This document shows positions 637-48,779 of a stretch of 64,000 nt of DNA, one piece after another. A program made the position numbers and the translations under genes. The stretch's first letter is position 1; each line of letters begins with the position of its first letter. Source of the stretch: Tubulanus polymorphus (lineage: Eukaryota; Animalia; Nemertea); contig NC_134027.1 of the NCBI RefSeq assembly GCF_964204645.1, forward strand, positions 19,678,560-19,742,559, written 5' to 3'. A model generated the notes under the pieces. It was not told where the DNA came from, did not search any database, and saw only the letters and a program-made list of their open reading frames with translations.

Positions 637-657
637 TATTTATAACACAAAAAAACT

Positions 658-697
658 ACTCTCATCACCACTAGTAATTTTTTTCCCTAATAAATGG
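658..697 (+). promoter_or_regulatory. Shared viral promoter-like motif upstream of the ATG at 694
   Basis: CTCATCACCACTAGTAATTTTTTTCCCTAATAAATGG; a near-identical copy lies on the minus strand at 7037-7074, in front of the pPolB ATG. Confidence 0.6.
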
Positions 698-1299: not shown

Positions 1300-1339
1300 G
1301 AAAATACCAGGAGCTTAATGAAGATCTATTACCAATAAA

Positions 1340-2012
1340 TTATAAACAAAAATGCCCACAATGTAATTATGCGACCTTAAGACAAGAAGGTACTGTGTTA
1401 TTTTGTAATGAATGTGGATGGCAAAAGAATTTATGGGGTGATGAAAAAACTAGAAATATTCTTATAGATCCAAAATTAAATTATCTAGATTTTTAAGGTA
1501 TTTTCTACGGAAGATCATACACCAGAATATATGCAATGGCTTGAAAAAATGAAAATAATAGAAAATAAAAATGGTGAATAACTAAAAAAGATATTTTAAA
1601 AACAATTATTCCATCAACATTTAACACAAAACAAAAGAAAATGTATTTATATTTATTATTTAATGATTATTATGAAAAACCTAAATCAACAGAAGAAGAT
1701 ATGGAAAATATAAAAAAAACATTCAAACAAATATTAATGTATCATTTGGAAAATAAAATAACAGATTCAATTAATTATGAATTCTTTTTAAATACGATTG
1801 TAAATTATTTAAACATCGATATTATAATTCCATTTGACGAATTAACAAACAAAAAGAAACAAAGAGAGCGAGATGAAATGTGGAATAATATAGAACTTTA
1901 TCTAAATGAGAAAAATGAAATGGAAGAGCCTAAACAAATTATACAAGAACAATTAAATGAAAAAGAAGAAACCAATAGTGATTTCGAGTTTGATGATATT
2001 GATCCATTTTAA
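1340..2012 (+). pseudogene. VLTF3 (poxvirus A2L-type late transcription factor)-like gene, frameshifted
   Basis: Zn ribbon CPQC...FCNECGW (about 1350-1420), then ITKKDILK, then ORF 1641-2012 with FKQI...INYEFFLNTIVNYL...IP..L..KKQRERDEMWNNI, resembling the VLTF3 C-terminal pattern. Confidence 0.45.
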
Positions 2013-5000
2013 TAACCATAAGGTAATGTTTTTATACCATCATCTGAAATATGTCTTTTATCATCAAATGGATTTAAACTAGTTTTTTCAACTTAATTAA
2101 TGTACATCTCGTGATCTTCTCATCTTAAACAATTCATTTTATGTTTCATTACAATTGAGTTATATAAACACTTTATATAATCTTGAAATTCTATATGTTT
2201 ATCAACCACATGTTTTGTTATTTCTTTTAACTTTTTAGCTTCATGATCTTTTGTTCTATAACTATACATTTTACTTCTTATCCCAACAAATTCAATCATT
2301 TCATCACCCCCTAATTCATCTTTAAATTTACCAGGAATCTTTTTATTATCATTGCTAAATAGTTCATGATCTTTGGGATAATTGCTAAAATCAAAATGAT
2401 GTTTTAATGTTTTAAAGTCTTTTGTTATGTCATTTGTCTTGATTTTTAGTATGTAACTGTCAGTATTGAAGCAAATTAATGGAAATCCACAGTTAAATGT
2501 ACCATCATCAGTTGATAAATCATAAACATAATCTGTTGGGTTATATATTTCAAATAAATCTTTAACTTCTTCAGTTAAATCTTTTTCTGTGTGGCTTAAA
2601 TTAAAGCAATTTGGTTTAGATTTAATCAATCCAATATTCATATTGAAGCCTAATGAATTAAATAATATATTTAACCCTGATATAGCAACTTTTCCTTTCT
2701 GTGCAAAGGTTATCTTTCTATCCTTTGTAAATTTTTTAGCACCATCTGCTGCGTAGAATCCAATGAAGAACCATTTTCTTAAATTATTTTTTGCATTTAA
2801 TACATAATCTGGAACTATCTTTTCTTTAGTTGAAGTATTACTTTTCACTATTGCATGAATATAGAATTCATCATTATATTTTATAGCAAAATCTTTAGAA
2901 TTATTTACAAGTATTCTATAAACTGCTGATGATTTCATAACATCCATGATTTTAAATGTTTTATTTGGATAAACTTCTTCACAATATTTCTTTATTCTTT
3001 CTAATAATATCAAATCTTGATTGCATAAATACCAACAATATTTATTACCCCAAACATATTTATACACACCTGCTGAACCATCTCCCATAAAAAATCCTTT
3101 GATAAAATATTCTTTTTCTTCTAATGTTTCAGGTTCTATATTATAAATATTATCAATTATTTCATCAAATGACATATGATTCATTCTTTGGAAAAATCTT
3201 TTATGTAATAATTCATCTCCGATTTTTATATCAGTTGGTTTTATTTCATCGCCATTTCGTTTAATTAAACTATGATCTTCTGTAACATCTACAAACCCTA
3301 ATTTAGTTCTAACTCTATAGATTTTCTTATTTGTTTTATGCCTAATAATATTCTTTAATTTTTTTCATCCATTTCTTGTCCACACATCCATTAATCCATT
3401 TATTTGTATTAATTCTTTTTCACCATATGAAATATAACATTCATTGTGTTTTGGAATTATCTCTGAAATTCTTCTTATCAATATTTTATCATTACATTTT
3501 AATAATATTGGGGTGTCAGCTGTTACAGAATCAAAATATAATATTTCAATATGCTTTTCCCCAAAAAGTGGTTGTAAAACATTATAATAAAAATCATACA
3601 TTAATAATGTTGATACTTCTAAAACAGTTGAACCAATGAATATAGGTTTATTAAATTTCATTGACGTTCTTTTTAATTTAACTGCTGTTAAATAATCTTC
3701 AAATGTTGAAATGACTTGATTGTAAATGTCTTAATCTTACAGAATTATTTACTAATTCAATATCATTTCTATTTCTAATATTTTCACATGTTTTACCATA
3801 AAAACTATTGTTCATTAATTTAAAAAAATCTTTTTCGAAATCTGTTTTTTATATGGTTATCTGTTGAGTATTGAAATCTATATATTTTTCTAACCACTTC
3901 GATTGATTAAATTCAATATATCTATGCACTTTCTTTAATTTCATTCCTTGTTTTAGATAAAATCTTAACATTCTATAAAGAACAATAAATTTGTATTTAT
4001 TATTTTGAGTAAGTATTAATTTTTCTGTAAAAACATGATCTTTCGGTTTTATTTTCTTCTGGTATTCACTTAAATAAGTATCATCTACGGTTAAATGTTC
4101 TGGGCAATAAGGTAAGTTTCTTGTTTTAAACTTTATATTTTCAGGATATTCTAAATCAACTACAAAGAAATAACCAATTGGTGCTTCATCTTTTAAACTC
4201 GCAATTGCGCTTTCCCAATCAGTTTTATCATCATTTTCAACTTCTGTTAATATAAAATTTTTATATGGGTGAGGTTGCATCATTGCCCAACCATATAAAT
4301 TATTGGCGTCAATATATAATAATTTATATTCGTCATTTGCTTTAAAATACCTATCTCCCATAACACCACTAATTCCACTTTAATTGATTTTTCAAATAAT
4401 AAAACCATGTCTGGTTCTTTTAATAAATCTAATTCTACATTTGTATATTTTTAACCACATTGCCAGGTTAAACCAGGACTTGAATAACAATAACAAGGAT
4501 CAACATTAAAATGATTTAAATTAACTTCTCTAAATTTTTCAAATATGTCAGCCAATATCATAACATCTGATTTTAAATATAAATCAACTAATTCACCATG
4601 ATTTTTCATCTTAAAATGGTTCCAAATATTTAATGTTCTATTAAACACTTCATCTTTCACATACTCCTCTTTTAATTGATCTTTAAAATTGATCTTTTAA
4701 TAATTCTGTTACATTAAAATCATTGTGTGTTTTATAAAATGAATAAGGAATTGCACCTTTATATCTCAATACTTTAAAATCTTGTTCATTTGGATAATAA
4801 TATCGAGTTATAACAAAATCATTATCAACTAAACTTTTTGATAAATTATCTAATGAACTTGCTAGAAATCTATAAGAATCTAAAAATCTAATGCAACCAA
4901 ATTGAAATGAAATATAATTTTCAGATGTTTTAGCTAATAGTTTAAAATCATATTTTCTTACATTTACACCATTCATAGCATTATATTCTTCTATTTCTTG

Positions 5001-7040
5001 ATTAATTGCACCCAATTTTCCCGATAATTGTTTTATCAATAGATGGGTATCATAGCCTGATAAATTATGAAATAATATTGGTACGAAATTAACTTTCTTA
5101 GCTTGTAAATTGCAATCTTCATGAGCAGCTCCACGATATTTTGAATTTAAATGATCATGATCTCTAACTTTTTTATCAAATGAATAAAAACGTTTTTCAC
5201 AATAACAACGATGAGTTGCATAATTAAAATCAATTTCATCTTCTTTTGCCATAACTATTCTTTTATTTTTGTTTAATAATTTTGCAAAATCACTTTCTAA
5301 TTCAATCATTTTGTCACAAAAATCATTAACTACATTTTCACCTCTAAAAGAAATATATTGACTTTCATATAATTCAGGATAATTTGATTTTATATAAATT
5401 CCATAAGCAGCAGCTCTTTGATGAACTTTTTTAATTGTATTTATAATTGGCGGGTCTTGTGTTGTGTCTTCATTTAATTCATTTCCTTTATCCATTGATT
5501 TTAATAATTGCTTTTTGTTATATATTTCTTTTCTATCTTGATCAGTTAATTCTTTATTCACCGAATGGAATGAATTACAAATGGAACAATATTTTTGAAT
5601 TTATGATTAGTAAATTTCAATTTATAATCTTTTTCTGTTGGCATTATTAATTTGCAAAAATCTTTATTATCACATAACTCTTTATGTTTTAGTAACGCAT
5701 TCTCAGTTCTAAATTTAGATAAACATTTTCTACATAGATAAATTTTATGACTGTTAAAATCACTTTCTGTTCTAAAGAATAAATCAATTTGTTTTAACCA
5801 CATACAATGTTCATTTTCATCTTTTTTGTAATATAACAAATCTATAGCATTTTCATCATCATAATATTCTGTTCAATATAAAGCTTCCAATGTATAATCT
5901 TTAATATTTTCACCTTTTGTCTTTGGTAATTGCATTAATTCGAATACATTTATTTTTAACTTATTAATTTTTTCTATTTTGGGTATCATTTTTATAGTTA
6001 CTGGATATTGATCAATTTTATATAATGTTTCATATTTCCGGTAATTTATTATTCTAAAACTATGGGTAATATCTTCTGTGGGGTGTAAACAACTAATAAT
6101 TGACCATAGAAAACATTTATTATCTTCATTTTGAACATTTATTACTGCTTTTGTTGTAAATGGTAATTTAATATAAGATGATGCTTTAATATCCTTTCCT
6201 GTTGTAAAGTTTGAATCATTTTTAAACATTGTTTTACTTTTTGATGTTTTATTCCTTTTTGTATTATAAACATTTAGATCTAAAAATATAATTTCATTTA
6301 ATGATAAACCAGAACCCTCAAAATATCTTTCTTCAATATGACGTTTAAATTCATTAAATACTTTTTCTAACTTCTCTTTTATTTGTGTTTTTGTAATTAT
6401 TTCTTCTGAGAGTGTTTGAATATTATAATCCATTTTCTCTTCTGACTTTAAAAAACTTACTTTCCCAGAGATACTAATTTTTGGATATTCAACATCTGTT
6501 ATCAAATCTAGTATTTTTTCTACTATTTCATTAAATTTAATATAATCTTCTATTGTTGTACCTTTAAAAAATCTAAATATAATAGCTGCAGGACCAATTT
6601 TACTACGTAATGTTTCTAATATTTCAATTGTATCTTTTATTTCTAGAGAATCAATATAATTTCTAACATTTTCCATGTAGGGTTTATTTGAAATGGATTT
6701 GGTTTTTTTACTTTTTGAGGTTTATCATCGAAATAATCTTTTCCTAAAACATTATTACTCAAATTTTGATGGTGTTTTTGTGATTCGAGATGTCTATTAT
6801 AATTCCTTTTTACTATATATTCATTACAAACTTCACATTTTATTTCATCCACATTCATATTTTCTAATCGTTCTTTTCTTTCATTGGAATTTTCTGAAGT
6901 TTCAAAATCTATAAATTTTTTATATGATTTGAAGATTTTTCATGACGCGATTTTTGAGATTTATCAATGTATTTTTTACAATATGGACAATAATATTGAT
7001 TTTCATTAACATCAATTTGTTCTGTCTTATTCTCTCCCAT
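2009..7040 (-). pseudogene. Protein-primed family B DNA polymerase (pPolB) of the Polinton, with an intein; multiple stops and frameshifts
   Basis: From ATG 7040: N-terminal Zn fingers, INVQNEDNKCFLWSI, endonuclease VII-like KVRDHDH..YRGAAH..CN, exonuclease FHNLSGYD and YLKSDV, motif A YIDANNLYGWAM, motif [13 protein letters not shown], motif C YFD|TDS, then KMYSY and LNPFDDKR...TLPYGY* (stop 2009-2011). Confidence 0.92.
2465..3529 (-). other. Intein with LAGLIDADG homing endonuclease inserted in pPolB motif C (YFD|TDS)
   Basis: 355 codons in frame. Block A SVTADTPILL, block B VDVTEDHSL (TxxH), LAGLIDADG motifs IKGFFMGDG and FIGFYAADG, block F YVYDLSTDDGTF, C-terminal Asn followed by +1 Thr. 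One in-frame TGA at 3365-3367. Confidence 0.93.
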
Positions 7041-7074
7041 TTATAAGGAAAAAAAATTACTTGTGGTGATGAGT
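7037..7074 (-). promoter_or_regulatory. Shared viral promoter-like motif upstream of the pPolB ATG
   Basis: Minus strand reads ACTCATCACCACAAGTAATTTTTTTTCCTTATAAATGG, matching 658-697. Confidence 0.6.
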
Positions 7075-7109
7075 GGGGATTACTTCCCCTTGTATATAAC
7101 AAGCTCGCT

Positions 7110-7310
7110 ATTAACCGTTCTCACCCAAGCCTCACAGCATCTATTTATCCGGGCACAGTTGACACGCAATCACTGTACTACAGTAATAGCACACACGTTA
7201 ATAACCGTTCTCAGTAGCGACTCACAGTATCGATCTATCCACGCGCAGTTGTTGTTACGCGCACTCACTGTATATGTGTATCACAGAGCAATCGTCCGTT
7301 CTCACTAGAG
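7110..7310. repeat. About 92-bp imperfect tandem repeat in the presumed Polinton terminal region
   Basis: CCGTTCTCA recurs near 7115, 7205 and 7296, with similar CTCACAG.AT...TATCC...CAGTTG...CACTGTA sequence after the first two. Confidence 0.6.
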
Positions 7311-7377
7311 CCTAGCTGTGATGAGTGGTGTCTCGACCTCTCGACCTCTGGTATGAAAACGCCATCTTCTAATTACT

Positions 7378-11332: not shown

Positions 11333-11552
11333 AGCATCATTCATCATAGAGGATAAAGATAGATACCGGCAACCAGTCTTGTTCTTCTGTAATAAAGTGC
11401 TTTTGAAATTCTTTGAATTTGAATTTGGCAAGGAGAATCTTCACCCAGCACTGGCAGTGGTTGTCTCCACCAGTGATCTCCGTCGCTCTACGATCCTAGT
11501 GTAACCAACTCAGTGGTACATCAGACACTAAGGTTCTTGGTGAAGGAGAATC

Positions 11553-11739
11553 ATGGCCGCCTCAAACGGCATTCCCGCTCAATTGATCGTTTTAGTTGTA
11601 TTTGTATCAACCTCACGAGCAATCGACGACGAATTTCACGAAGAATTACTCATCAAACATTTACCTAATGGCCAACTTTATCTGAACTTTCAATTTTCAA
11701 CAATCTGGAACTCTACATCAAGTGGCGAACTACATGAAA
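11553..11739 (+). CDS. PIGT: PIG-T exon 1
   Basis: Signal peptide, [23 protein letters not shown]; donor GTAAGT at 11740. Confidence 0.92.
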
Positions 11740-14700
11740 GTAAGTACTAAAGTAGTAAGACTCTTCACATTTGTATGGAAGCCCTGAGATAGGGATTTCA
11801 GGTCACGTGATCAAAATGTGTCATAATTAGCGTTTTCCACGCTTCAAATTTTCAATCGCTCATAAAAAACGTATTCTATATCCGATTGAAGCCAAACTTG
11901 CTCAGTATACTCAATTTACCGGTTATTTGATGTGGTGTAAATTTCATGAGTGTATCTTGCCTAGTTACGGAGCAATAAGTCGTAGTTCAGCGCGCGTCGG
12001 CTCATTTCTAGGAAACAAGATGGCGGCCATGTTTGTTCATGCATTTTTCAAACACGTGAAAAACGCATGCAATTTTTTGGGTCAAATCCGCGAGCCGGCT
12101 GCTGATTGGCTGGATATTTGACCTCAGAATATTTTAAGAACATGTTTCAAGTAGAGCATGTCGGTGCGTGCAAGTTTTGGTAGGCCTAGTTAGTCACCTA
12201 ATCGTTGGTGGTAAGCTTTTTATAATCGGATGGGCTTATACCAACGTTAGGGATGACAAGGACCAAAACACGGTTGAAAAAAGTAACACTTCTAAAATAT
12301 ACTTTCTATTCACTTCAGTCCACAATTAATGGCTTAATTCACAAACTAACACAGGTAGGCCCTACCTTTCGAAATAATCCAATTTTATGTATGTTTCGAG
12401 TGGTTAATCAACATTATTTTGAGAAATTAATTAATTTCTCCACCAATTTCGCCATTAGCCGCCATTTCTCTGTATTGCACATGTGGCATGATAAGACAAG
12501 GGGACCTACAAGGATTTATATAAAACTTCCAAGACGAAACGACAATTTTTATTTTTGATGGTTTTCCAACTTATATTTCAAATCTTCATGTTTTCAACAA
12601 TAAATAATGAAATAATAAATTCTGGTAAAAGAAAAATGTGAATAAGTGTTGATTTCTTAATTTTTTTTTCAATTTCGTCGTTTCGCTTCGTTAGTTTGTG
12701 CTGTTGTCCTGGCCTCACTCCACAGGTGCCAGCACCTCCAGTAATTTTCAAAATGGCAGCTGTTGAGGGTTTTTACTCTCACTTCACAGCCGATTTGCAC
12801 ATGGATTAAGATCGTCAGGTGAGGTGTTATAGGTATCAGACAAACTACGAATCTGTTGTGCGTCGATTACAACAAAAATTAGACGGATATCTTAAGAGAC
12901 AATGAAATGCCAGGCAAATTACTCGTCAGTCAAATTGGCTGACGAAGATTTCATACAAAAATGACCTTCCCATTCCTGACTGTGGTTTGTGAAAATATCC
13001 GATTGTGAAACTAAACCACAGACAGGTTACTGACTATGGGTAGGCCCTGTATCACTCGGAAAAAGTCGTAAACATAATTCAAAGTGCTCATACGCTAAAA
13101 TTAATAATTTTAACAACTTGCACTCTACTACATGATAAAATAAGATACTTTATATATTGTTTTCAATTATTACTTTTAAGATTGATTTAGTAGTCTTTCG
13201 CGGATTTTGACCTAAAGTCGGCAAGGCGCTTCAAATTGTTTACATCCGGGTCACTGCGGGCTCACACCGGCTGCCAGCTGATCAATCAAAACACTTCCTG
13301 GTTCATTTTTACCATTCTAAATGTCAATTTAGCAAGTAAAACGTCACTTTCACTCAATAAACTCATACTTTATTACGAAATCGGCAATATATAAGACGAA
13401 TAATGGTTAGTCCTACCCAATTTAAAAACTTTGAGTGTTTTGCACAAGAATCCAAGTTTTGTCTAAATTTTAGCTCATTTTTTGCTAAAAAGAAATTTTA
13501 TTTTTCCTATCTGCTTCACCTTTAGGTAATCATCTCATCTTGAATACTAGGATGTCCCTCTGAAAAGCAGTTGTTATTCATTTGTTCATGGTTTTTCAAT
13601 TCCAATTGTCGACCCTTTCGCTAAATAACTGCCGCTGCTAGGCCTAAAATACCCACCAACCAATGGTTAATCAAATAGATTCTAGAGGATTATATTATCA
13701 ATTTTCTTTTTCATTCGAATGACTTGCCTAGAAGGAGACCTTTAATTAGATAACAAACATGACATACTTTTGTAAAATTGACTTTCCGCAAAACAAGATG
13801 GCCGCCATTCCTCGAGCCTCAATTTGAGATATCATGATATAGATATTTCATGGGTAAATCTGTTAGGGCCTAGGGATCTCTAAAGAAGAGCAAAGGATTT
13901 TCCATTCATTTCAATTTGATTTAATTTCGGAAAACCATGTAGTACGTAGATCTCTTCAACGCTTTATCCTATTCTTCTGCGGCAAGTGAGTATCTGAAAT
14001 ATAATGATATTATTAGTATCTTTTATTTCAGAAGGCTTTAAAACATTTAACTTATCCACTAAGATTAGTTATTTCAAATAATAAAGGTCTATAAGGCCAT
14101 ATCGAATCAACTAAATACATTAAAGATGTAGTTAATAAGATTCAAGATGGCCGCCTTGATACTTACCTTATGGTTACCGTGGTAATCGGTATCACCCTGA
14201 TGCACGATATCTTCGGTATATTATCTCAAAATTGATATTCCATGTCTTAAGTATCATTTATCTTGAGAAATAAACTAGTATTGCGTTAATGGTTATAGAA
14301 GTGGGTATTAATTAGATAATTAGTATGCATATTAGCCTAATTTACATATTTGTGCAATTACTTACATGAATCTAAACAAACTTTGTATAGACAACATACT
14401 GACCAAGTTTGGTTTTAAACAGATAAATATTCTCGGAGTTATATTGGTTTTAATGTTGAATTTAATTCCTTTATCTGGCTAAAAAGCAGCAAAACCTAGA
14501 CACTTCCTGTCTGATACTTTCATTGGAAATGAACTAAAGTGTATTGCGCAATCGAATGACAAAATACCCCAAATTTCCACCCTTGGATTGCTCATAACTT
14601 TTGAACCGCTTGACCAATTTTGATTCTGTAAAGTGCTGTATGCTTATGCTATCCCCTTCTTCATTTTAAGCTATTAGAAAGACACATAGGACACAGAAAT

Positions 14701-17700
14701 TTTCAACCTGAAATCCCTACCTGAGACGACATCTTGGGTTTATGAGCTCCCCAGTTCATAACTTCCTGAGTTTATGAGATTTCGAGTTTATTTGGGCATG
14801 CACAACACTATGAAATTACGCGCCTTAAAAAAATCATATTTTAATGATGTCAAATCCTTTTTCGCCATGAATAAGCCTAACTACAAAAATGATGTCCCAC
14901 ATCGATCAACCTAGACTGGTTGACTGTGTCCAATTCTGCACTGGCAGTCAACTAATGGTAGACCGGTAACTAGTCTATCATCAGCCATCTGCTTTCTTGA
15001 TGGTTTATAGAAAACTAATAGATGTTAAAAATGTCTACTAATGAGCGTTTGTTATCTCTGTTATCTTTTAAACCTGAACAGACACATCGAGATTCGGCGG
15101 TGAATCGGAGTCACCCCCCTCACTACCGCGCACAGAAAATCGGAGCCACTCGAACTACCTGCCAGAGGCAGAACGGAGGCGCCATTGTCCCTTCAACATG
15201 CCATTAATTGCTGGTTATTCAGTGTCGTCTTAGTCCGAGACGCGGGCCTTTCATAGAACTTCGCGTTTACGTTCGATGTTTAAGTATCGGCGGCTTTTTG
15301 TCATTAAACAAACCCAGGAATTCATGAACTTGAGAACTCAGGAAGTTATGACGCAGAACTCATGAACTCAAGATGTCGTCTCAGAGCTTTCATACATTTG
15401 ACAGCACAGGCACTCGCCGATGGGGTAGTAGGTCTACTAAACACCGACCAAAACCTTCCAATACAGACCAAAAGCTGTCCAATACCGACCAAAAGCTGCC
15501 AAACACCGACCAAAATCCTCCCAACCAAAATTCCCGGAAGATTGGTCACATTTGACGGTTAGGATAAAATCAGTGGAAATCTTGCCCAAACACCATCCAT
15601 GACCATGAATTCGTTCCGTCTAGTGGCGCCACTTGAGAGCTTCGTCCTTGGCCAAATTTAGTTTTCCATTCCCAAAGCCGAATGAAAATCAAGAATTAAA
15701 ACTGTAATAAAACTTAGAAATTTTTACGACCGATCAAAGCTAATAGGCCTACAATAATCATAGAAAAATTTGTAGAGTTGCATTTGCTTTCACACCCCGA
15801 GACAGGTATTATTTTACTTTTGGTCCGTAATAAAGTTATTTTTGGTCGGTATCATAGTTTTCTTTTTGTGGTTGTTACAATTTGGGTCGGTACTAATTTC
15901 ACTTATGTTCGGTATTGGACGGCTTTTGGTCAGTATTGGACGGTTTTGGTCGGTATTTAGAACCACCGCGCCGATGGGCTTGGGATACAGTTTCTGGGGT
16001 TTTTGATAGTGTATTTGTGTTTTCACTCGTTATTCTGCAATAAATCTGAGAACAAACGTCTTGGTACTGATACGTTTAAAAAGATAAAGGCCGCTGGCTC
16101 CACACACGGCGACCTCACAAAATACTGAACAAACTGCATGGAGCAAGTTTAGAAATGGTTGGCAGCTGCTAATAACGTGATAGGAAAATTGAAAATCACT
16201 GGTAAAATACTTGAGAATATTGAATTCATGTAATGCAGTAAGAACTATTATACAGTAGTGTTCTCCATGGGTCAAATTTATAGCAGGGCACAGTAAGAAA
16301 TATTAAACTTATTCTGCAACGACGATGCAAGCGCCGAAGGTGCGAAGCCATTGCGGGTGGTTTTGGGGTCCTCTGCCAAGAAAATTTTTTAATTTTACGC
16401 TCCTCAGAGTGTCTGAGACAGAAAACCACACTGGAATTCGTGAAAAGTCACATATGGTTTTAATGCTGGATGCCAAATATCACAAACTTCCTTTGTACAT
16501 ACATTTATTGATGATCTACAGACGCTAAACAAACTTTATTGATCAGAGACACTGCTATATGCAGCGCGCTCTCGTAGATACTGATAGTAGGCTCCGAACA
16601 CTGAGCTGCCAATCATAGAAGTTGCCTACGTTCCAACTACTAGAACATTTCATGCATCCGATTTCACAACTTTGTAGGCACATCGTGATTTAGCTTCCCT
16701 TAAATTACGCATACGACAATGAAAACAATTTAAGCAGGGCCGTAAAAACATTAGGCAGGGTGCTGAGTTTTGAGCATGGCGGCATATAATTTTAGCAGGG
16801 CGGCCCGCCCTGCTAAAACAGCCCGTGGAGAACACTGTATGGGAAAAATAGTGATATGATAATAAGCCCCACTGCTATGAAAGTGGATGCAACTGACTGT
16901 CGAATGATACTTACGATAAAATCAAACCTGCAGCTCTGCTCAAACTTACTGTGTCAATTTAGCCCCACATATTAAAATAGGTGAAACTGGATATTTATAT
17001 ATTTTCTACTTTCAGATGACCATTACCATTTATTCCCGAAGTCGCTGGGTGAAATTTTAGCCAAGTACTCTGTGCAGGAATTACATTTAAGTCTTACTCA
17101 AGGAACTTGGCGGTATGGTAACTGGGGATATCCGATACAAAGTGCACCACCTGGTGCTGAATTGCTTGTTTGGTTTTTGCCATCGGCAACCAGGTAAATT
17201 ATATTCATAACGGTACCCACACATCCGGAAAAATGGGGGGTTAAGTTTTTATGGTAGGTGATATTCCCTGCTAATCGGGAAAAGTTTTAATTTTTAGCCC
17301 ACTTGGGACTTTAGTCCCAGCGGGCTATTGCGTTCACTTTTCGTCTGTCCGTCTGTAAACGGAATCCAGTTATTTTGGGAAGTTTTGAAGACGCTTCAAG
17401 GTAATGTCTTGATATTTAGTTTATACATGTGTCTACCCTAGACACATCTTCAGCCCAAAAACTGGCCCTCTCAGATTCAAGATGGCCGACTGGCAGCCAT
17501 TGTTCTTCGTCAAAATCAGCACTTTTTGAACTTTTTGAGGGAAATTTTGAAGACGCTTAAATCAATTACCTTGATCTTTCATATATATTTGAATCACCCA
17601 GGGCCCATCACCATTAGAAAAATTGGGTCGATCGGACTCAAGATGGCCGTCATATGACCTTTTTAGTGCCCAAAAATGTCAATTTTGGCCCAAATTCTGA

Positions 17701-20700
17701 GTCCTGTAGCTTCCTACTGGTTTGCCATTTCTCATTGCAATTTTTGATGGGTATTCCTTGGAAAGGGTTGTTTTATACCTGAGCCAGGTATTTTTGATCG
17801 GCCAATTGTGACGCAATTGGCGGCCATCTTGGTATCATCAGTTCTCATTGGTAGGTGGGAAAAATTATTCCACATTATATTGATACCTAAGCATATTTTG
17901 TTACCATAATTAATTGCAAAGTTGTTGCTCATGACATCATCTATGATTGTGGTGAGTTTCAAGGACATTAGTTATTCTAAATGGTCACCAGGGGGCGTTG
18001 AATAGTAGAATAACTTAGTATTTCCTTATTAGATTGGTACCTAGGCATATTTTGTTACCATGATCAATTGCAAAGTTGTAGTTTATGACATGTTCTATGA
18101 TTATGGTGAGTTTTAAGGTCATTGGGTTTTGAATATGGTCACCAGGGGGCGTTGAATAGTAGAATACTTAGTATTTCCATATTAAATTGGTAACGAGACA
18201 TATTTTGTTATCACAATCAATTACAAAATCATAGCTGCTGACATGTTCTATGATTGTGGTAAGGTTCAAGGTCATTGGTTTTTGTATATGGTCACCAAGT
18301 GGCGTTGAACATCGAAATTGTTAGATCGTTGAGCATTGGAAACCACTTCCCAAGTGGGCATGGTGTCCCTGGACCCCTAGTTGTGTATAACATTTCTTGT
18401 TCACGATGGATATTTTGTCATTATTTTCTATAGAATTGGGCATCTAACATAATTTCCATCATTTCCAATTAATGGAACATTGGGATATGCGATGTGGTAA
18501 TGTCAATTAAATTCAATTATATTCAACCACAATTATCAGCATGCTAGTACCACAACTTCAGCTGGTAGTGCCACCTACGGGAAATGTTGTAAGTTATGGA
18601 ATGCTGCCTGTCAAACTGGATTTCTCGACTCGTTTTTGAAAGGTTACTTGCCTGTAACAAATGATACAAACTCAGCCTCAGAGAATACCTGATGATCAAA
18701 CCAGTCTGTAGTGGCTGGTTAGTGATTATTACAACGAATATTAATCAGCGATATTTAGCCTGCAATTTTTGCTGAATATTTTTCTTATGACTCAACTAGA
18801 GACATTTTTCAGGTTGGACCGTGCGGGATATATTTGTGTGTTGTTAGCACATAGGCCTATGTATGTTTGTATGCTTTAATTTGGTCGCAGGAGGCGAGGG
18901 ATATTGTCGTCGCTGTATGTTGTTCCCGCTGTTTAGGGGCTTAAGTTTTTGGTTGATTTTCTTGTGACTTAGGTATGTTTGTTTTAGGTATGAGGAGGAT
19001 GAACCCTATTGTTTTTGACATATATAAGTCATCCAAGATGGTCGTCACAGTCATTTTGATGTGTAAAATAGCCATTTTGGAGCTTGTTTCCGCTCTACAG
19101 TCTACAGTATCTGAACAATTTTCCAATTACTTTATCTGTGGTTTTATGATAGAGGGAGGATGAGCCCTATTGTTTTTGACGTATAGGCCTATAAGTCATC
19201 CAAGATGGCCACCACAGTCATTTTGGTGTGTGAAATGGCAACTTTGGAGCTTGTTCCCATCCTACTATTTACAGTTTCAGACCAATTTTCTTATTACTTG
19301 ATCTACGGTTTCATGATAGAGGGAGGATGAGGGATCGTTTTTGACATATATAAGTCATCCAAGATGGCTGCCTGCCACTATCATTTGGTTGTGTAAAGCA
19401 ACTTAGGCGGTTGTTCGCAATCTACAGTCTACAGAACTTTCTTCTTACTTGGTCTGTGGTTTATGGTAAAAGGAGGATGACCTCTATTGTTTTTGACATG
19501 TCAACAATTTCGTATCACCTAGAAGGCATGACTTTACAATCATTCTAGGCAAACAAAAGTGCAACATAAATGGCAAGCTGATGTAATATGAGTTGTATAC
19601 TTCGCAACACGGAAATTTGATTTTACTGATTTGAATTGAACTTGAAAGATGTTTCCTTTTCCACAAATACCTTACAAATGGTGTTGAATGAATAAACTAC
19701 TGACTGAATAAAGTTACTTCTTACAAATTTTGTACCATACTACATGTCTTATGAACGAAATCATCATTGGTAAATGCTGGTAATACACAACGCTGCTCAT
19801 CATTGGACCCTTCCAATTAAGTTGTTATAAACCTGCAAATGAACCCCACTTTTCTTAAAGAGTAGGATCATGCTTACTTTACAGCGCCCGAGAATGACAA
19901 AGATTGTCAACGTTTTGTAGTCCATTTGTATACATCAAAGTAAAGACAAAAATTATCAAAATCATGAATATCGCGGAGACTAAATATTTTTGAACAGAAT
20001 AGTTTCTTATTCCTGTAGAGCTAGAAAAAGAATGTCAGTCACCCTTTGAGCTAATGGTTTCTGTGATCACTGGGAGTGTTGACTATTGAAATTGGTAAAT
20101 TGTCAAGCGTTTAATTCATACCATTTCCCAAGTGAGCATGGTGTCCCTGGACTTCTAGCTTTGTCTTGTGATGATCTAAGAGGCTTGATTTATCGCATCC
20201 TCATGATCCGGTATCACTAACGACATATCGCCCTTTTTTGGAATTTAATGAATGCTTAATTCATTGCACACATGCCATTTTTTTTATCTGACAATTTTTG
20301 AGACATATAATGGCACCCTTGAAAAGAGCACCCAGTTATGGGCAACCATCCCCGCCAAATAGACTTGTATGTTCTTGATACTCTTTGTTTTCATCTGCAC
20401 AGATAATCAGGAACGATCACGCAGGTCAAGTTACAGGGCAGCCCACAAAACCCACAAATTCATTGGACAACAATTTAATTTTCTTCCTCTTCTGTAAAAT
20501 TGGTAGCATGATCTGTTTGTCTTCGGTGTTGCTTCTTCAAACAGGATTTTAAAGATCGGGGAAATCAGAGAATCCTGGATTTTCAGCAAAAGTCACCCTC
20601 AGGGAATTTTAATTTTTGATGTCTTTGTTGTTGCTTGAATGGCACAAGGGACCACTCGTGAATAAACAGAGCAAGTGAGGATAATCTGGAAATTCAAGTG

Positions 20701-23700
20701 GAGGGTTCAGGGATTATTAATAATTTTTGACTCTGAGCTATACCTTCCTTTTCATACCTACAAAAATATTATATACGCTGCTTGCCTGCTGGAAAGTCAT
20801 GGATTTCCATTTAACAGAATCAACAGCTATCAGATGAAATATATCCGACCACCTTTTCATGAGGGGGGCATACTGTATTCACTTCGTTGTCTGTCCGCAA
20901 AGGTTTCTGTACCCTAGCACCTAAACCTTTTGACAGATTTTTCTGAAATTCAACAATTGACCTCAGGTAAATGATTGCGGGTCCTGTAAGTAAAAAAAGT
21001 CAAGTTTACCAGAAGCTGTTTTGTATTTTTCATGTCCGGGCTTTAACTCATAGGAATTTGGAGACATTTTTTGGATGGGTTATCCTAGAGACTAGCGTAA
21101 CTTATACCGGTATGATTCCAGGTCCTGTAGATCAAAGGTCAAGTTCACCGGAAGCTGTTTTGTATTTTCCATTTCCGGGCTCTAAATCACAAATAGTTGA
21201 GATAATGTGTTGAAATTTTATGGATGGTTTAGCGCAGAGACCATATGCTTGGGGTGTATTTACAATTTTACACTCACCTGATGTGGGAGTATTAGTCGTT
21301 GTCTGTGACATTCTAGCTATTTTGGTGTACCTTTGCCAAAACAACTGCAAAGTAGAAGCAGAGGCCCTTTAGGTGTTAACAGATTATGTGGACCAATGAA
21401 TCAGGTGTTCAAAATGTTCAAAGCAGCCTGCAAGGAAAGAATCATGTATTTATCTTAAATTTGACGTAGAACACAAAAATATGAATGAACAAAAACGAAC
21501 TTTATATGCCAGCCTGCCATTTATTATTTGGTGGAAAATCCTTCACTGTGCAAGAATATTCATCAAAATATGCCCACAAACGTTAAGAATATGCTCTATT
21601 TAAGAATCTCTGACTTCAGAAGTAGCCCCTTGTTGACATGTATTCTTTATTTCATCGCAGTCTCAGTAAGATATGGACTGAATTGAATAACGCATTGTCT
21701 GGACAGATTTGCGCATCTTTGAATTTCATGGACGCTAAATCAACAGTCATACCGAAGTGGTCATTTCGTCCCCGCGGAGCTACGCACAAGAATTACAAGC
21801 GCTTATTTCGTCATGTTCGTTACGCTGCTCTACCACGTGAAGTCGTCTGTACAGAGAATTTAACGCCATGGAAAAAACTGCTTCCATGTTCGTCAAAGGT
21901 GAAATAAATTTTCCAAACCTTACTGGGTCCCGATTTTACTTGATTGTTTGCTTTTTGAAGTTGCGATCACACAAAAGTCTTTTTGGGTCAAATAAAGGCC
22001 TGTTTCAGATGAGGACAGGGCCAATCGTTTACACTAGCGTCAACTCAGTCTGTGGCTAGTTATTTGATTGAATTGTTAAAAAGTTAGTTATTTAGTTTTC
22101 AAATTAGACACATGCTAAATATGACTAGGGCCTGGTCCAGGCCTGTTAGTCTCGGGCCAAATCATCTGCGGGTGATCGTGACTGATGCTTAACCTTATGC
22201 CCAGAGTTTCTAGAGAGAGCAGTGTTTTCCATTCCTTGCGTAGCACAATGATGGAAAAAATACATTATGGTTTGAATATCAATAGCGCTGCAGGGTAAAA
22301 AGTTTTTAATTTTTACAATTGGTGAGATACGTTCATAAAAATACTGATCAGGCTGGAAAAGTAATACAAACATATTTTCAGGCTTGCAATTATAGAGGAT
22401 GCTGGAAATTTAGGTAGTGAGATTTAGATTTATATAGGAAACAATCTGTCCCATAAAAAGTTTAATGGAGAACACTGGGATTAATACCTGCTTTAAACAA
22501 CTCATATTTAGGCAAATCCAGGAAGAAAGACACTAAATATTTGGATGAATATATGAAAGCTGTGGGTACTGGAGTGTGTAATGGGTAGTGTAGTGTGATC
22601 TGTGTGCATTTGTGGCTAGCACACAGATCACATTGTTCATTGGGGTTTGGTCCAGGACTCGCGAGATTTTCAACAACACGGAAGTAACGTGTAATAAATT
22701 ATGACTTGAATTGCATGACTACCTACCACCCCTCATTATTGTTGGAAAACTAAACGTTCCCCACTGACTAAAAATTAGTAATAACGTTTTAGAAATGGCC
22801 AGAATTTTAACTTGGGTTCTATCTCATTTTTATTTTACAATTGCTTTTGGTATAATTTTTTTTTAAACGGCCGTTAAGGCTTCATGTTTCGTCTGCAATT
22901 CACTGCAAATAGTTACGCAACTACGCACATTTCAGTGTTTTTGGCAGCTGTACACTCAATCGGCACCGTTCGTGACTAGCTTCACTGCGGAATTATCATT
23001 AATTAACATCGCCATATCACATCATCAACTTATATTGTGCCTTAAAACCCTAACAGCCGAAATAATTGAAATGCACACACGATTTCTATCATTGAAAATT
23101 GAGAGAGTGGCCATGTTTGTGTTCTGCTGCTTCTCGTAAATCCCGCGCGGTGGCGCAACCGCATGGAGTGGGGCCAATACGTCTAGAACACTGGTACAAA
23201 ATATGTGCCAAGATCAATGGAGACCGATCGCATGGTAAATATACAATCATCAGTTGTAAGGAGCTTGTGCAGGTTGCAACTGGTGATGATTGCTCTGCCT
23301 CATTAAAATCACAACATGTGAGGTAGATTTTCGTAATAGATTAAAGTAATATCGGCTCAGCGTTGCTCCAAAATATACTGGTCTGAGAAAGTATTTTTGG
23401 CCTGTATGAGGTGCGCAGCCTGTGTTGTATCATTGTGCTACATATCTGAATCCCTGATTCTGGAGCTGGTTAATCACAGCTCAGATTACAGCCTATAGGC
23501 TTGGATTGATTCAAGTTATGATAAATTGTTGAGAATTTGCTCTTTCCAGGTTGGTTTAGCAACTTTATTCAACGCTGTGAAGTTGTATGACAGTAAATAT
23601 CACTCATTAAGTATCAACGTAAGATCTGTTTGTCACAATACGAATTGTTCACAAACTTCATTGGAACTTGTCCAAAGTTTGGCTGTTGTTTTCGATCTTC

Positions 23701-26700
23701 CTGCTAAAAATTTTGGCCGAGCTGGTAAGGAAACTTTTCTTGTATTTTCAAGTCGAATTACCTAATAGACCTAATAAGTCTAATAATTCACCACTTTGAA
23801 TGCTATAGGCTAAGTGTAGTAAATATTGTCGAACTTTGACTGTGAATTTATAGCTATTTCATGTCTCATAAGGTTAGCGCTTATAAAGCTGAGCTAGCCT
23901 CATAGGGTTAGGGTTATGATGAAAGAATAGAATATTGGTAACTTGGGAATGTGAGATGAAAATTGAAATATACCTTATGATTAACAGTACATGATTCAAT
24001 CTTTAAGTTTAGATTTGTCAATTTCAGGTCCATAACTTTAATTGATGAAGATATTGTCCATGCATTTTTGTTTTGTTCTATCATCATTGCATTACCCTAA
24101 TGAGAATTTACCTAAAAAATTATTGTTAGGCTATTTAGTCTGGGTCGAGCTTTAAGCTTGACCTACTGTAATATTCTTTTCAGATTGGTCTTTCAAAAAG
24201 TTGTTTGGCCGAATGTTAGCATCAACCTGCCCTCTAGCAAAAACCAGTTACATTTATGTCGATGCAACAAATAATCAGGTAAAGTGAAATATGTGGAAAT
24301 GGAATTTTATCATATCGAACTCAGATATTGAGCATTATATACTGCATATTTCTGCAATTTACTACAAACTTGATGAATGATATGTTGAACAGCTTAGAAT
24401 TACTTAACGTAAATCGGGTATCATTTGCGTTTTGAAAGCATCCACAAATTCTGGAGAGAATGTAATACTGCACTTATGCCTTGCAACGATCTTTTTTATA
24501 TTCCTTTTTTGCAGAGTTCAGCGCCCTATCATTTGACAGTAGAGCCAACATTAAGAAGAACATTTACCAGGGGTGGATACACTAGACAAGTTGCTGTTTA
24601 TGACATACACGATGTTATTGGTCGAGAACGATTAGTGAATCTTGGGGCTAATTTTGACCATGCAGTAAAATTCGTTGATGTTAAACCACTTCCTTTATAC
24701 GCGCATCGTTTTACTACAGGTAAATTATGGGAAGCTATGACACCAGCTATTCCACCAGATGGCGTGAGCGCTTAGTCTTGTCAGAATCAGTTCATAAGCC
24801 CTCAACTCTGAACTGAATATTAAGGCTTCTGACTCCAAATACTGTCAGGACTGTCTAAAAATGTCGGATGAATTTCTACTCAGTGTATGGTACTCAATAT
24901 CGATTGATTTATAGAATTGAGAGATGTGCGCTCGATTTTAACTGAAATGTAGATCAGATTGGATTTGGAAGAAGGGGTAATACTAGCAATCCTGGTTTAT
25001 CCTTACAACGTATGAAATTTATCGTATTATTTTTTCTATTTGCTTTAGGATATGGACAGGAAACAGGAGGGATATCTACACAGATTTATAATAATAATGA
25101 TCAGGAGTTATCTATAATTTATATGGAATCAGCTCCATGGTATATACAAGTATTCTTACATACCATGAAAATTGAGAGCAATGGACAAATAATCAATGCA
25201 AGTAAGTTGGCTGGCAATACTGGCTGACTATATTCAGTCTTAACTGATGAGACCCTTCTAAGATTCATCTGACGCAGATCATCTTGTACAGAACTTATGT
25301 TTTAAGTTTTAAGCAAACAGTGAAACTCGCTTAATCCGGATCAGTTTAATCTGTATTTTAATCAAATCCGAATGTCATTTAGGTCGATCTCTACTTATAT
25401 GTTTCTTCTGGATGGATTTCATGAAGGTTGGACTGATCCAAATTATGCGATGTCCACTTTAGAATCTTTGTTTTGCTTTGTTTTCAAATGTTGTTTCCCT
25501 CAAACATTATATACACCTTTGACATTCCTCACAGACAAGTTCATTATACTCATTCGAATGTTTTTCAGTGATGGGCAATCTGCAGGGGCAGATCCAGAAC
25601 CCAAAAAAATGGGAAGAGCTAAGCAAAATGCACATGTATAATCAATGAGGCCGATGGCATTGTACATACTATGATCCACAAATATCAAGTGCCGTAGGTT
25701 CAAGCCCCTCCCCGAGAAAATTTGAAAAAGAATACATTATTTTCTAGAGCATATAGAGTGATTCTAGAACAAAAATATATGCAATATATAGCATATTTGT
25801 GATGTGAAGCAGTATCATTGATATAGCCTCTGGGGGAATAGAAATTTATGGTTTATTGTCGTGGATTCAAACCTTACGTACCGTATTTACCGGCCGATAA
25901 GCCGATTATCTAGCCTAAGCTGCAATCTGACCTAAAAATCACTTAAGATGGTTCCAATGATTGTCAAAATCAAAATCAAGAAAACAGTCTGTATTAATTT
26001 GAGGTCAATATTTACTACCATTTATCAGTTTGAACTGTTTTGTTCCTTTTATCATCACCTCACAGCAGCAATGTAATACATCTGTAGGCCTATATATGCG
26101 CGTGAGTCTATACGTATATTGTACCACCACTAAGCAATGAAAGTTTACAGCATTCTCGCACATCAGTGGCGTGTATTGTGCTATTGTTTGTAAGACCCTT
26201 AATTAAAGCAAACTTATAGACAAATCAGTGAATTAACTAATGGAAATTAATTGGTTTTCAATTGCTTAACTTAGGGAAATTAATTGGTTTTCCAATACAT
26301 GTTATATGAAACCTGAAATACGCTGAAGACATATACATGTCCAAGACCATACTATCTCTACTGCCATGGATATAGTCCCATAATGCTATATCATATATAA
26401 CTGATAATCTGATAAAAAATGGACTGTAACGCGTCATTTGCCTGTATCCATGATCCTAGCTATGACTATCATAGCCTGTTGTATTTAGGTTCCCAAAATC
26501 GTGATGAATTATGAAAAGTTTTGAAGGGCTTACCTTTCAGTGCGCTATTACTATAACATGTACACTAACTACATTGTCAGACACGCATTTTATTATTGAA
26601 ACAGTTCATTACATTGAAATAAACTAAAATAAGAACACTCATGCATCCACTCACTACTATGTAGTCAATTCTAAACAGTGTTTTCGACCATATGGACCTT

Positions 26701-28842
26701 ATGGTCCTCTTATTTTGATGACTTGGTATATGGCTTGCTTTACCACATGTTGAATTTAGCCATATTATTGCTGTGCAGTTCATATGATACTTGCCACTTG
26801 CCTTGTCCTTGACTAGTTGGTTTCTGTATTCGTTCACCAGATGCATTGAAAACGTAATAATAACATGATATTTCCATATATTGGTACCTATATACAATGG
26901 TGCATATTTTGTACCCACAATCTATTGCAAAATTGTAACTCATAGCATGTTTTATTAATGCTGTGAGTTTCAAGGATTACTGAATTTGTTCAGCAGCTGG
27001 TTTTGTATAGTGCAATTTGAAGTTGTCAAGCATTTCATTAAGTGGGCATGGTGTCGTTAGACCCGAGTTTCCTATATTTTGAATCGCAATGAATTGCCAA
27101 GGCAGTGAATTATGTATTTAAATTAAATTTTGCATTGACCTTGATAATGATATAACTGCAATGATGATTCCAGGAATTTTTAGTGGATAATTCCTTTGAA
27201 TATATATATCTCTGTATATTTCAATAGATCTGCTAACTGGATTCAATACACTTATAAGGTATTTTGAATATCTTTCTTGTATTTCAGCGAGAATTCATTA
27301 TGAACCAGGGCAAACTCGAAAAAAGCCATATCTACTAGAAGTTGTATTTACTTTACCCCCTCGATCTGTCACAAAATTCAGTATCGAATTCGAAAGGGCT
27401 TTATTGAAATGGACTGAATACCCACCGGATGCTAATCATGGATTTTACATCAATTCGGCTGTGATAAGTTGTATATTACCAGATGGAAGATTCTACGAGG
27501 CAGCGTCGATCCATAATTCAATCATGGCAAACAGGTGAATAAATGTATCGAAATAATTTAGAGGGCCTTACTGAATTATTTGGCCTACTGCCCTGATCAA
27601 AGTCTAGTGGAACCTCATTTTAGCAAACTGCTTGGGCAAAAATTAAAAGTTCATAGTATTCATTGGTTTGTTAGATCAATTTGACATTATAAAGTTTACT
27701 TTCATGGTAACACTTGTGTAGAACATCATTTACACAAAGGAAACACCCCCTGGTGGGATGAAACACTAACAAACAGGTTTTAGACTTTTTAGAAATGAAT
27801 ACTATCGGTATTCACTGAGGGACAACTATAAACTATAACATCAATTGAAATAGAATATTAATGTAAATTATGTAAAATAGCAGATCCTCTCTGGTAACTT
27901 AGAGTGGTAAAGAATGGTTGTTTGGAGTCACATGTGTATAGACAAATCCCGCTAAGTCCAGTCCTTTGGCATTTTCAACCTTGACTCCTGTGATATTTAT
28001 ATTCTTTTCTTCCTATTTGTCAAAACTGCGCTTTTGTTATGTTGATTGAACATTTTAAGACTTCAGATCGTGTTATAGTTTCCACGGCGAAACAATTGGA
28101 AGAATTTCTGCTAATTTTACGTTTTCTTGATGTTTATATTTCAACCGTGTTGGATGGCAGCTGGCTTTACAACAACAATGGCTTCTATTGGGCATCCTAA
28201 TTACAAACAGAAAGCAATCAAAATTAAGAATCTGTGACAGCGTTTAGACCCTTTCTAATGACTTGGATAATTCATTCTATTCACGGCTAAATAACAGGGA
28301 TGATAATTTTCCGCTGTTCGGCAGTTTTTTCGCCTTTTCAATCAATTTTTATCATTTCTCAGATCGATGCAAATCCGTTGAAAAAAATGGGGGGGTGAGG
28401 ATAATGGCATCTTAAGGATAGATTGGTACGACCGTATGGCTGGTATGACTGGAAAATTCAGCATTGACTAGCGTACCTTACCTGGTGGATATTCCCTTGC
28501 CACAAACTAAATCCTATAATGCTACAGTCTGAATTCATTTCATTATGATTTTTTATTTCTCATTTCAGTTTTGAGGACAATTCAACTTTTTTTGTTCGTC
28601 TACATACAGAAAGCTTGCTAGTGTCACTACCAACACCAGATTTTAGTATGCCTTACAACGTTATATGTTTAGTTTGTACAGTGGTAGCCATCGCATTTGG
28701 CTCGGTTCACAATATGACCACGAGGAGATTTACTATTGCTGATGAAAATGATAATCTTGGATTTTTTGCGAAACTAAAGAAGAAATTGATGGGAAAACCA
28801 AATGAGCAAGAGATGACTGAATCAAAGGAAAAGCAATCGTGA
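11553..28842 (+). CDS. PIGT: GPI transamidase component PIG-T, 9 exons, 583 aa
   Basis: Exons 11553-11739, 17016-17193, 21661-21898, 23550-23724, 24184-24278, 24515-24719, 25049-25201, 27288-27534, 28569-28842; all GT-AG, phases consistent, 1752 nt. Signal peptide, [68 protein letters not shown] and a TM helix. Confidence 0.96.
11773..15395. mobile_element. Non-autonomous TIR element with a 4-bp ATTT TSD (Sola-like), left TIR split by a hAT-like insertion
   Basis: GTATGGAAGCCCTGAGA[insertion]CGACATCTTGGGTTTATGAG pairs with CTCATGAACTCAAGATGTCGTCTCAGAGCTTTCATAC. ATTT at 11769-11772 and 15396-15399. Confidence 0.7.
11790..14719. mobile_element. Non-autonomous hAT-like element with 14-bp TIR and 7-bp TSD
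   Basis: TAGGGATTTCAGGT ... ACCTGAAATCCCTA. CCTGAGA at 11783-11789 and 14720-14726. Confidence 0.85.
15425..15969. mobile_element. MULE-like MITE with repeat-built TIRs and a 9-bp TSD
   Basis: ACCGACCAAAA arrays at the left end are inverted at the right end (TTTTGGTCGGT). GCCGATGGG at 15416-15424 and 15970-15978. Confidence 0.75.
16256..16837. mobile_element. hAT-like MITE remnant
   Basis: TAGTGTTCTCCA...TGGAGAACACTG termini with AGCAGGGC subterminal repeats; no clear TSD. Similar termini at about 22221-22478. Confidence 0.5.
17016..17193 (+). CDS. PIGT: PIG-T exon 2
   Basis: [50 protein letters not shown]; flanked by AG and GT. Confidence 0.94.
17291..18382 (+). mobile_element. Helentron/DINE-1-like non-autonomous element with three approx. 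154-bp internal repeats
   Basis: TTTTTAGCCCACTTGGGA start, GTCTGTCCGTCTGT microsatellite, subterminal inverted TCCCAAGTGGGC, and a 3' end followed by TT. GGTCACCA recurs at 17983, 18137 and 18290. Confidence 0.8.
18985..19500 (+). repeat. About 160-167-bp tandem repeat, roughly 3 copies
   Basis: TCATCCAAGATGG at 19029, 19196 and 19355, each preceded by GAGGATGA...GTTTTTGAC. Confidence 0.75.
21661..21898 (+). CDS. PIGT: PIG-T exon 3
   Basis: [18 protein letters not shown]...[20 protein letters not shown]. Confidence 0.95.
23550..23724 (+). CDS. PIGT: PIG-T exon 4
   Basis: [22 protein letters not shown]...[12 protein letters not shown]. Confidence 0.92.
24184..24278 (+). CDS. PIGT: PIG-T exon 5
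   Basis: [27 protein letters not shown]. Confidence 0.92.
24515..24719 (+). CDS. PIGT: PIG-T exon 6
   Basis: [11 protein letters not shown]...AVYD...[10 protein letters not shown]. Confidence 0.9.
25049..25201 (+). CDS. PIGT: PIG-T exon 7
   Basis: GYGQETGGI...[18 protein letters not shown]. Confidence 0.93.
27288..27534 (+). CDS. PIGT: PIG-T exon 8
   Basis: [14 protein letters not shown]...[27 protein letters not shown]. Confidence 0.95.
28569..28842 (+). CDS. PIGT: PIG-T exon 9 (terminal)
   Basis: [37 protein letters not shown]...KEKQS*. Confidence 0.95.
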
Positions 28843-32395: not shown

Positions 32396-32499
32396 ACCAC
32401 TTGAATTCAAACTAATAAACTGTCATGGCTAATTTAAATTGTTCACATTATATCAGACTAGAGGATTAAAGAATAAAATGAAATCAAGTTTTAACAATT

Positions 32500-48620: not shown

Positions 48621-48779
48621 CAGCAAACGGCCTATAAAGTTACGGAGCCATTTTTTGATTTATCCCCCAGGGGCGTCCCTGGGGGTGTAGTTTCTATTTC
48701 TTCAAATCACTACCAGTCCTGAGGAGAGAATCCCACAATGATAATAAAAAGTCCGAAAATGAAACTTCGAGATAGTAGT

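Follow-up and report, generated by a model that had tools for sequence, protein, structure and literature searches.

How did an intein of the type known from giant-virus DNA polymerases come to interrupt the catalytic motif of a Polinton polymerase in an animal genome, and does it still move there? The window analysed here is a 64,000-nt stretch of the nemertean Tubulanus polymorphus (contig NC_134027.1, positions 19,678,560 to 19,742,559). A first-pass annotation, made from the letters alone, had placed in it a 355-codon in-frame insert at 2465..3529 that splits YFD|TDS, and we found both coordinates and flanks to be as claimed. The features used below are as follows.

2012..7040, minus strand: decayed Polinton protein-primed family B DNA polymerase (pPolB), located by tblastn with two intact relatives
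3530..3538, minus strand: polymerase motif C, N-terminal half YFD
2465..3529, minus strand: putative homing intein of 355 codons, a split Hint domain around a two-motif LAGLIDADG endonuclease
3266..3292, minus strand: intein block B VDVTEDHSL, with Thr83 and His86
3074..3103, minus strand: first LAGLIDADG motif (block C), with acidic D150
2738..2770, minus strand: second LAGLIDADG motif (block E), with acidic D262
2465..2530, minus strand: intein blocks F and G, with Asp337, penultimate Phe and terminal Asn355
2456..2464, minus strand: polymerase motif C, C-terminal half TDS; its Thr (+1) is the predicted splicing nucleophile
7033..7358, strand not given: probable inner part of a terminal inverted repeat, from read depth and loose read ends
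11544..28839, plus strand: PIG-T (Gpi16) host gene, with seven exon-bearing frames in order and kilobase introns

An intein in polymerase motif C

The insert comprises 1065 nt (3529-2465, minus strand), is in frame and interrupts YFD|TDS of the pPolB, with ILYFD| before it and |TDSYILKI after it. Every element that the annotation had read from it was present, namely a Ser nucleophile, block B VDVTEDHSL, two LAGLIDADG motifs, YVYDLST, a terminal Asn and a +1 Thr. By residue number, Ser1, T83/H86, D150, K237 (the block D Lys), D262, D337 within the YVYDLST of block F, N355 and the +1 Thr are all in place, and a single in-frame stop at intein codon 55 (3365-3367) was translated as X. In profile searches, the insert passed TIGR01445 (intein N-terminus; 30.6 bits against a cut-off of 24.5) and Pfam LAGLIDADG_3 (24.6 against 22.5), and scored under the cut-off of Pfam Intein_splicing (29.9 against 35.8).

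At its C-terminus, the window intein has Phe in place of the usual penultimate His, and its block F is without His. A penultimate His is usual in class 1 inteins and not obligatory. The C-terminal pairs of 293 full-length relatives included HN (150), KN (117), SN (13), and FN (8). Residues T83, E84, D85, and H86 were unchanged in 16 of 16 aligned rows. Among full-length Polinton inteins, both catalytic Asp residues, the block F Asp, and the terminal Asn were kept in 23 of 23, and block B in 22 of 23.

The best solved sequence relative of the insert was the archaeal PolB intein PI-PkoII (E 7.8e-7). A structure predicted from the 16-row alignment (pLDDT 87, pTM 0.88) matched the PDB entries TliVMA (E 2.9e-17), PhoVMA, PI-PkoII, and PI-PfuI over full length, with E values from 3e-17 to 2e-12, and a fold search also matched it to PI-SceI (E 7.5e-11) and I-DmoI. 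Among viral models, the six best fold matches shared 20-32% identity and were either giant-virus PolB entries or models with no name, and Megavirus PolB was 26% identical to the window intein in the fold alignment.

These results confirm that the insert is a genuine intein with Hint and LAGLIDADG domains, placed at pol-c in a Polinton-type pPolB, and its insertion between YxD and TDS agrees, as the annotation had stated, with the site described in the available text of PMC549080. Its in-frame position at a conserved site, its splice-motif residues, and the predicted Hint fold point to a class 1 intein, while two helices with acidic residues and the block D Lys identify a LAGLIDADG endonuclease for which cutting is predicted. 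Two other identities were rejected. A spliceosomal intron is at odds with a skip that occurs in DNA reads and with insert ends that are not GT-AG, and a Hedgehog-type Hint domain is at odds with the internal endonuclease, the empty alleles, and the terminal Asn-Thr.

With the canonical splicing pathway as a model (PMC7765530, from its available text), an acyl shift at Ser1 in an intact copy would be followed by transesterification at Thr+1 and cyclisation of Asn355, which would rejoin YFD to TDS and restore the catalytic motif required for the polymerase to work. The LAGLIDADG nuclease would cut the empty site, and repair from a copy carrying the intein (a plus copy) would install it, with homing taking place between Polinton copies that share one nucleus, whether integrated or replicating. 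We consider it probable that the insert is a homing intein lodged in motif C of a Polinton pPolB, predicted to self-splice in intact copies, with a nuclease likely to cut empty ones. A spliced junction peptide would prove that the Polinton polymerase is made in animal cells.

Plus and empty copies and their chromosomal setting

Raw DNA reads from another study of the same species (run X6, of which ~12% was read) contain copies with and without the intein, as the annotation had envisaged. Thirty-seven reads with 27 start points join 2464 to 3530 and so skip exactly 1065 nt; 32 further reads make the same joint but with eight other C-side letters. Loose read ends were found at the two insert borders in 93 and 101 reads. 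Because read depth was 580-750 in the exteins beside the site and 130-270 inside the intein, roughly one third of the copies that are at least 80% alike carry the intein, and the rest are empty. The codon-55 stop is private to the window copy, since 199 of 202 reads have other letters than the window at that position. Because the same species has copies with and without it, the intein, a kind of parasite found chiefly in microbes and giant viruses, is likely copying itself between Polinton copies of that species. With plus and empty copies present by the dozens per genome, single assemblies would be enough to study how homing proceeds, the conversion tracts it leaves, and target escape.

Among proteins, the three polymerases nearest to the window extein pieces (67-79% identity) were uninterrupted (YFDTDSYILKIK). 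Marine metagenome reads gave short scattered pieces only in run X5, which were not used, and none in run X7. Two types of empty site occur around 2456-2464. The first has the window's C-side flank; the second departs from it by four synonymous changes in the three codons that follow the site, among them a switch of serine codon family, and leaves TDS unchanged.

In-frame stops near 6911, 5875, 4453, 3851, 3367, 2122, and 2095, seven in all, together with six frame changes show that the window pPolB copy itself is dead. This copy is 51-74% identical to the intact, intein-free polymerase P0225, and its pieces are 54-67% identical to P0052, which passes Pfam DNA_pol_B_2 (PF03175) at 62 bits; the same profile found no match in the broken window pieces alone or in P0225. 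We infer that the family of the window copy was under selection as coding sequence. Of the variable intein sites listed, 18 of 27 were third codon positions (p 4e-4), a count drawn from 40 of 159 sites picked by read support.

Depth at 7033-7358 was two- to threefold that over the pPolB, and hundreds of reads diverge at 7033 and at 7358-7377. This stretch is probably the inner portion of a terminal inverted repeat, truncated by a retroelement fragment. The Polinton continues beyond position 1 of the window, and its second end lies outside; its integrase, packaging ATPase, protease, and major capsid genes would be expected on that side, to the left of the window. GC content was 24% in region 1-7000 and 37% in the flank. 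The intein (0.25) showed no compositional step against the exteins (0.23-0.27).

An intron-rich PIG-T gene lies 4.5 kb from the pPolB. Three of its exons scored 82-92 bits against PIG-T and 43-55 against GPI16 among PDB entries, which we take to be the human and yeast proteins. Penelope and Copia pieces follow beyond the gene, in a flank annotation based on 85 scanned frames and proteins that covers 73 of the 103 listed frames. From gene likeness and the genome build, it is very likely that the intein-bearing Polinton resides in an animal chromosome; the argument for an animal host concerns the window copy and does not extend to the hosts of its relatives. The alternative would be a free virus, a symbiont, or a mis-join outside the chromosome. 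Against such an origin, private stops and frameshifts are numerous, a pattern consistent with integration followed by neutral decay, and four sequencing runs of the one species contain 40-49% of the sampled words. Moreover, reads at least 99% alike to the window number only 94 of 4591, and the remainder range down to 80%, like a dispersed repeat family. We give a non-chromosomal element almost no credence.

Several minor features surround the polymerase and the host gene. A minus-strand ORF at 193-639 may be a minor capsid fragment (a weak DUF5901 match, E 0.06; model pLDDT 42), a broken C2H2 zinc-finger protein at 694-1500 (plus strand) is a further Polinton ORF, and an uncharacterised 144-aa ORF at 1578-2012 (plus strand) converges on the pPolB. 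A 44-nt motif that ends in TAAATG occurs at 661-704 (plus strand) and 7030-7073 (minus strand), 89% alike, and lies at the start codons of the C2H2 ORF (694) and the pPolB (7040). It is likely a shared promoter or translation signal, and reads suggest further copies near 7318. Farther along, a Penelope-type RT with GIY-YIG forms a perfect 1430-nt inverted repeat (48720-50149 and 50245-51674, with a 95-nt spacer), which is either a recent inverted insertion or an assembly artefact. Arrays of a ~154-nt unit are common to 17685-18386 and 31545-32399, one of them within a PIG-T intron.

Relatives and origin of the intein

Protein searches with the intein returned 49 and 309 matches (the best 120 listed) and 1967 cluster representatives (the best 150 listed). 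Among the matches listed, the top ones were pPolBs with an insert at the identical site, and Polinton inteins were the nearest relatives, at 40-73% identity overall: 63% for P0052, 65-73% for the fragments P0005, P0007, and P0012, 49% for P0053, 47% for P0055 and for P0057, and 42-43% for P0059-P0061. By their exteins, 42 rows were pPolB, window included, and the full-length ones fall into nine lineages at 75%. The P0053 family has 136 cluster members and is found on contigs that reach 1 Mb. P0059 comes from a genome bin labelled as a clam symbiont and is likely host DNA.

Inteins of RNA-primed polymerases were at most 41% identical to the window intein among the matches listed. Their carriers were giant-virus MAGs (33-41%, the best at 41%), phage-type enzymes, and the Pol delta of Chloropicon (33%), and some relatives occupied topoisomerase II or pol-a sites. 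The annotation had put segments of the insert very close to the Mimivirus PolB intein; the nearest values obtained for giant viruses were this 41% and, in the fold alignment, the 26% of Megavirus PolB. Most "NCLDV" labels were assigned here from a YGD site and RNA-primed exteins, and only IMG/VR loci are named giant-virus MAGs. Contig scans found intein relatives at 37 viral loci and at least 80 metagenome loci (at least 117 in total), none of which was classed as pPolB, and a scan of genome contigs with P0059 gave no match. A phage collection yielded one weak match (28%), and an Atlas search yielded leads only (best scores 0.84 and 0.82).

Other carriers of the family were seen in passing. 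The phage-type polymerases P0064, P0066, P0068, and P0370 (PHROG 262; E under 1e-150 for the first three) carry the same intein family at pol-c, and their inteins are nested with strong support among giant-virus-type inteins, a second cross-realm jump. The type II topoisomerases P0058, P0143, P0162, and P0171 have intein relatives inserted at D|TDG or D|S, with at least two such inserts in P0058. In P0052, residues 1181-1183 before the intein read YGD, the RNA-primed consensus, and its empty relatives have YQD, YLD, or YFD.

For phylogeny, two careful trees were built from hand-picked rows (38 of 115 and 41 of 293). All trees used LG models without mixture and excluded rows under 300 aa (mini-inteins and fragments). 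The intein tree was rooted on P0050 and P0051, taken as archaeal-type by an inferred label. Polinton inteins formed a single clade throughout, with support of 100/100 in the 38-row and 41-row trees, 99 in the 221-row tree, and 100 in the 115-row tree. The rooted tree places them among the inteins of RNA-primed polymerases, with a sister group that varies with sampling, and a placement outside all RNA-primed ones was rejected at the borderline only (AU 0.044 and 0.074).

The annotation had proposed that an intein moved between an RNA-primed NCLDV polymerase and a protein-primed Polinton polymerase, perhaps during co-infection. A direct transfer to the window element in recent times, with a Mimivirus-like giant virus as the source, would account for a pol-c site identical to that of the Mimivirus intein (PMC549080, available text) and for the 41% identity to inteins of giant-virus MAG polymerases. 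It does not fit a window intein that joins nine Polinton lineages in one clade (100/100) and is 63-73% identical to other Polinton inteins, nor the level composition of intein and exteins. It is also at odds with the 18 nt around the site: across 69 viral and metagenomic loci, an average of 11 of these positions match, and 14 at most. We hold such a transfer to be highly improbable. The outcome that the annotation had set against its transfer claim, a Polinton intein clade apart from NCLDV inteins, is largely what we found, and branching within this clade follows the polymerase tree.

What survives of the proposal is an older event. Our best account, drawn from sequence comparison, is that the clade began with a single old jump from an RNA-primed to a protein-primed polymerase, at the clade base, from a donor that varies with the tree. 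Entry from an RNA-primed PolB is suggested because pol-c of other RNA-primed polymerases accounts for 188 of the 221 dereplicated rows and Polintons for 9; the jump would be old because composition is level and the 18-nt site matches only ~11 positions on average. The founder would have come from a giant-virus-type family B polymerase with a YxD|TDS site, and between such distant targets Ogata et al. proposed a chain of small steps (PMC549080, available text). One shared motif would thus be a route for an intein between RNA-primed and protein-primed polymerases, and the transfer implies that at some time Polintons and a large DNA virus, or a similar donor, were present in the same cell.

A phage-type or cellular (Pol delta) polymerase as first donor, or movement in the reverse direction, would draw on the intein family in P0064, P0066, and P0068, which fall in the sister group in the 38-row tree, on the intein of Chloropicon Pol delta (PMC10710043, available text), and on the borderline rejection of the tree with Polintons outside. 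However, the preponderance of rows in other RNA-primed polymerases, the nesting of phage rows among viral-type rows, and the naming of loci as giant-virus MAGs all favour a giant-virus-type source, and we judge these other donors very unlikely.

The closest known systems are the pol-c inteins of Mimivirus R322 and of archaeal PolB (position III), which share the motif C YxD|TDS site, a length of ~350 aa, Ser1, terminal Asn, +1 Thr, and two LAGLIDADG motifs (PMC549080, available text). Those inteins sit in RNA-primed PolB, whereas the window intein sits in a protein-primed Polinton polymerase and belongs to a clade of its own; unlike them, its family also has many copies in one eukaryotic genome, plus beside empty. 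The endogenous giant-virus polymerase inteins of algae and labyrinthulids likewise place a viral-type polymerase intein on a nuclear chromosome, and the Chloropicon Pol delta intein is a relative of ours (33%), but as far as the available text of PMC10710043 goes, the hosts are protists and algae and the enzymes RNA-primed, in contrast to an integrating Polinton in an animal-type genome.

Nuclease domains within Polinton pPolBs have been described as HNH/VSR inserts (bioRxiv 10.1101/2023.08.22.554363; PMC11161782) and were suggested to derive from intein invasions (PMC11161782, available text). The available parts of these sources attribute neither a Hint domain nor a splicing motif to them, and "intein" and "Hint" occur 0 times in that of the bioRxiv paper. 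By contrast, the window insert combines Hint and LAGLIDADG domains in a complete intein, interrupts the catalytic motif, and has empty alleles. Fungal VMA1 (PI-SceI) and Prp8 inteins are also nuclear and LAGLIDADG-bearing, with plus and empty alleles, but they home between homologous chromosomes at meiosis, whereas the Polinton target is multi-copy, so that dispersed or viral copies would serve (PMC7765530 and PMC5784728, available text).

Eukaryotic inteins have been reported in fungi, algae, protists, and giant viruses (PMC5784728, PMC10710043), and inteins are also known from an insect iridovirus (PMC549080); the available portions of PMC5784728 and PMC10710043 name neither an animal chromosome nor a protein-primed polymerase as an intein carrier. 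In a search of open-access papers, we found no report of a Hint-bearing intein in a Polinton. The intein allele is a known one; its carrier is new, as very likely is the host kingdom, and the case places a complete homing intein in both an animal chromosome and a protein-primed polymerase.

Proposed homing and inheritance among Polintons

After the founding jump, we propose that the intein would have persisted through homing, loss, and re-invasion. In a 57-row polymerase tree, one starred clade contains all but one of the 14 plus rows (13) along with 23 empty rows, and plus and empty polymerases are interleaved, with nine changes on the tree. The annotation had looked to incongruence between intein and extein trees for support. 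The main splits of the two trees agree, which gave no such support, and the incongruence that does exist is the intein of P0055, found in an unrelated pPolB. The P0055 polymerase shares no more than 21% identity with the others, and BLAST gave no match between it and the intein-free P0225 below E 0.4; its intein nevertheless shows 38-47% identity to the Polinton clade. A jump between unrelated pPolB classes would therefore be needed wherever P0055 branches, its position inside the Polinton clade being weakly fixed (AU 0.144).

The P0053 family carries the most local marks of movement. Fourteen members of its cluster were read, of which six were full-length plus copies, six were empty, and two did not cover the site. 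Because the six plus copies are nearly identical (1537-1539 aa), they suggest that plus elements multiplied recently. The empty P0182 and P0184 are 99% identical to the plus P0053 upstream, with 0 of 90 residues differing from -100 to -11, and differ at 8 of 20 residues within 10 of the site. By contrast, the plus P0056, from another subfamily, differs from P0053 at 18 of 90 residues upstream and at just 3 of 20 near the site. In this family the flank appears to track the intein, which fits co-conversion or target escape. The signature is not general, since the plus P0189 and the empty P0192 have identical flanks.

These patterns bear on whether the intein is a mere passenger that entered once, splices, and is inherited with its polymerase, with occasional loss by recombination and little or no homing now. 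The shared main splits of the intein and polymerase trees would follow from such a history, and the match between deep trees limits the homing reading because plain descent with losses also predicts it. The presence of the intein in just 3 of the best 120 polymerase matches and the emptiness of about two thirds of related copies within the species point the same way. Against inheritance of this kind, the endonuclease acidic residues are kept in 23 of 23 full-length copies despite 40-74% divergence, flanks in the P0053 family are mosaic, and P0055 would have acquired the intein by a jump between classes. We consider a passenger unlikely. Our best reading is that one old jump into pPolB was followed by homing and loss among Polintons and by one move into an unrelated pPolB class.

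A stronger claim is that animal genomes host live, Polinton-specific homing of a pol-c intein that spreads among copies, has crossed two pPolB classes, and has driven escape of the motif. We hold this as a tentative possibility, a little more doubtful than not. Of 50 empty polymerases in the most intein-rich clade, 37 have DCDS, DTDA, or DTDG in place of DTDS, compared with 1 of 47 elsewhere. These counts serve as a lead, since the rows are kin and the Fisher test is not taken as a probability, and they come from a motif pattern that missed 21 of 118 rows, 15 of which show DTDS. The DCDS and DTDA variants are possibly an escape from the endonuclease. Within the P0053 family, the empty members P0178, P0180-P0185, and P0241 have DCDS or DTDA and differ from plus members almost solely beside the site.
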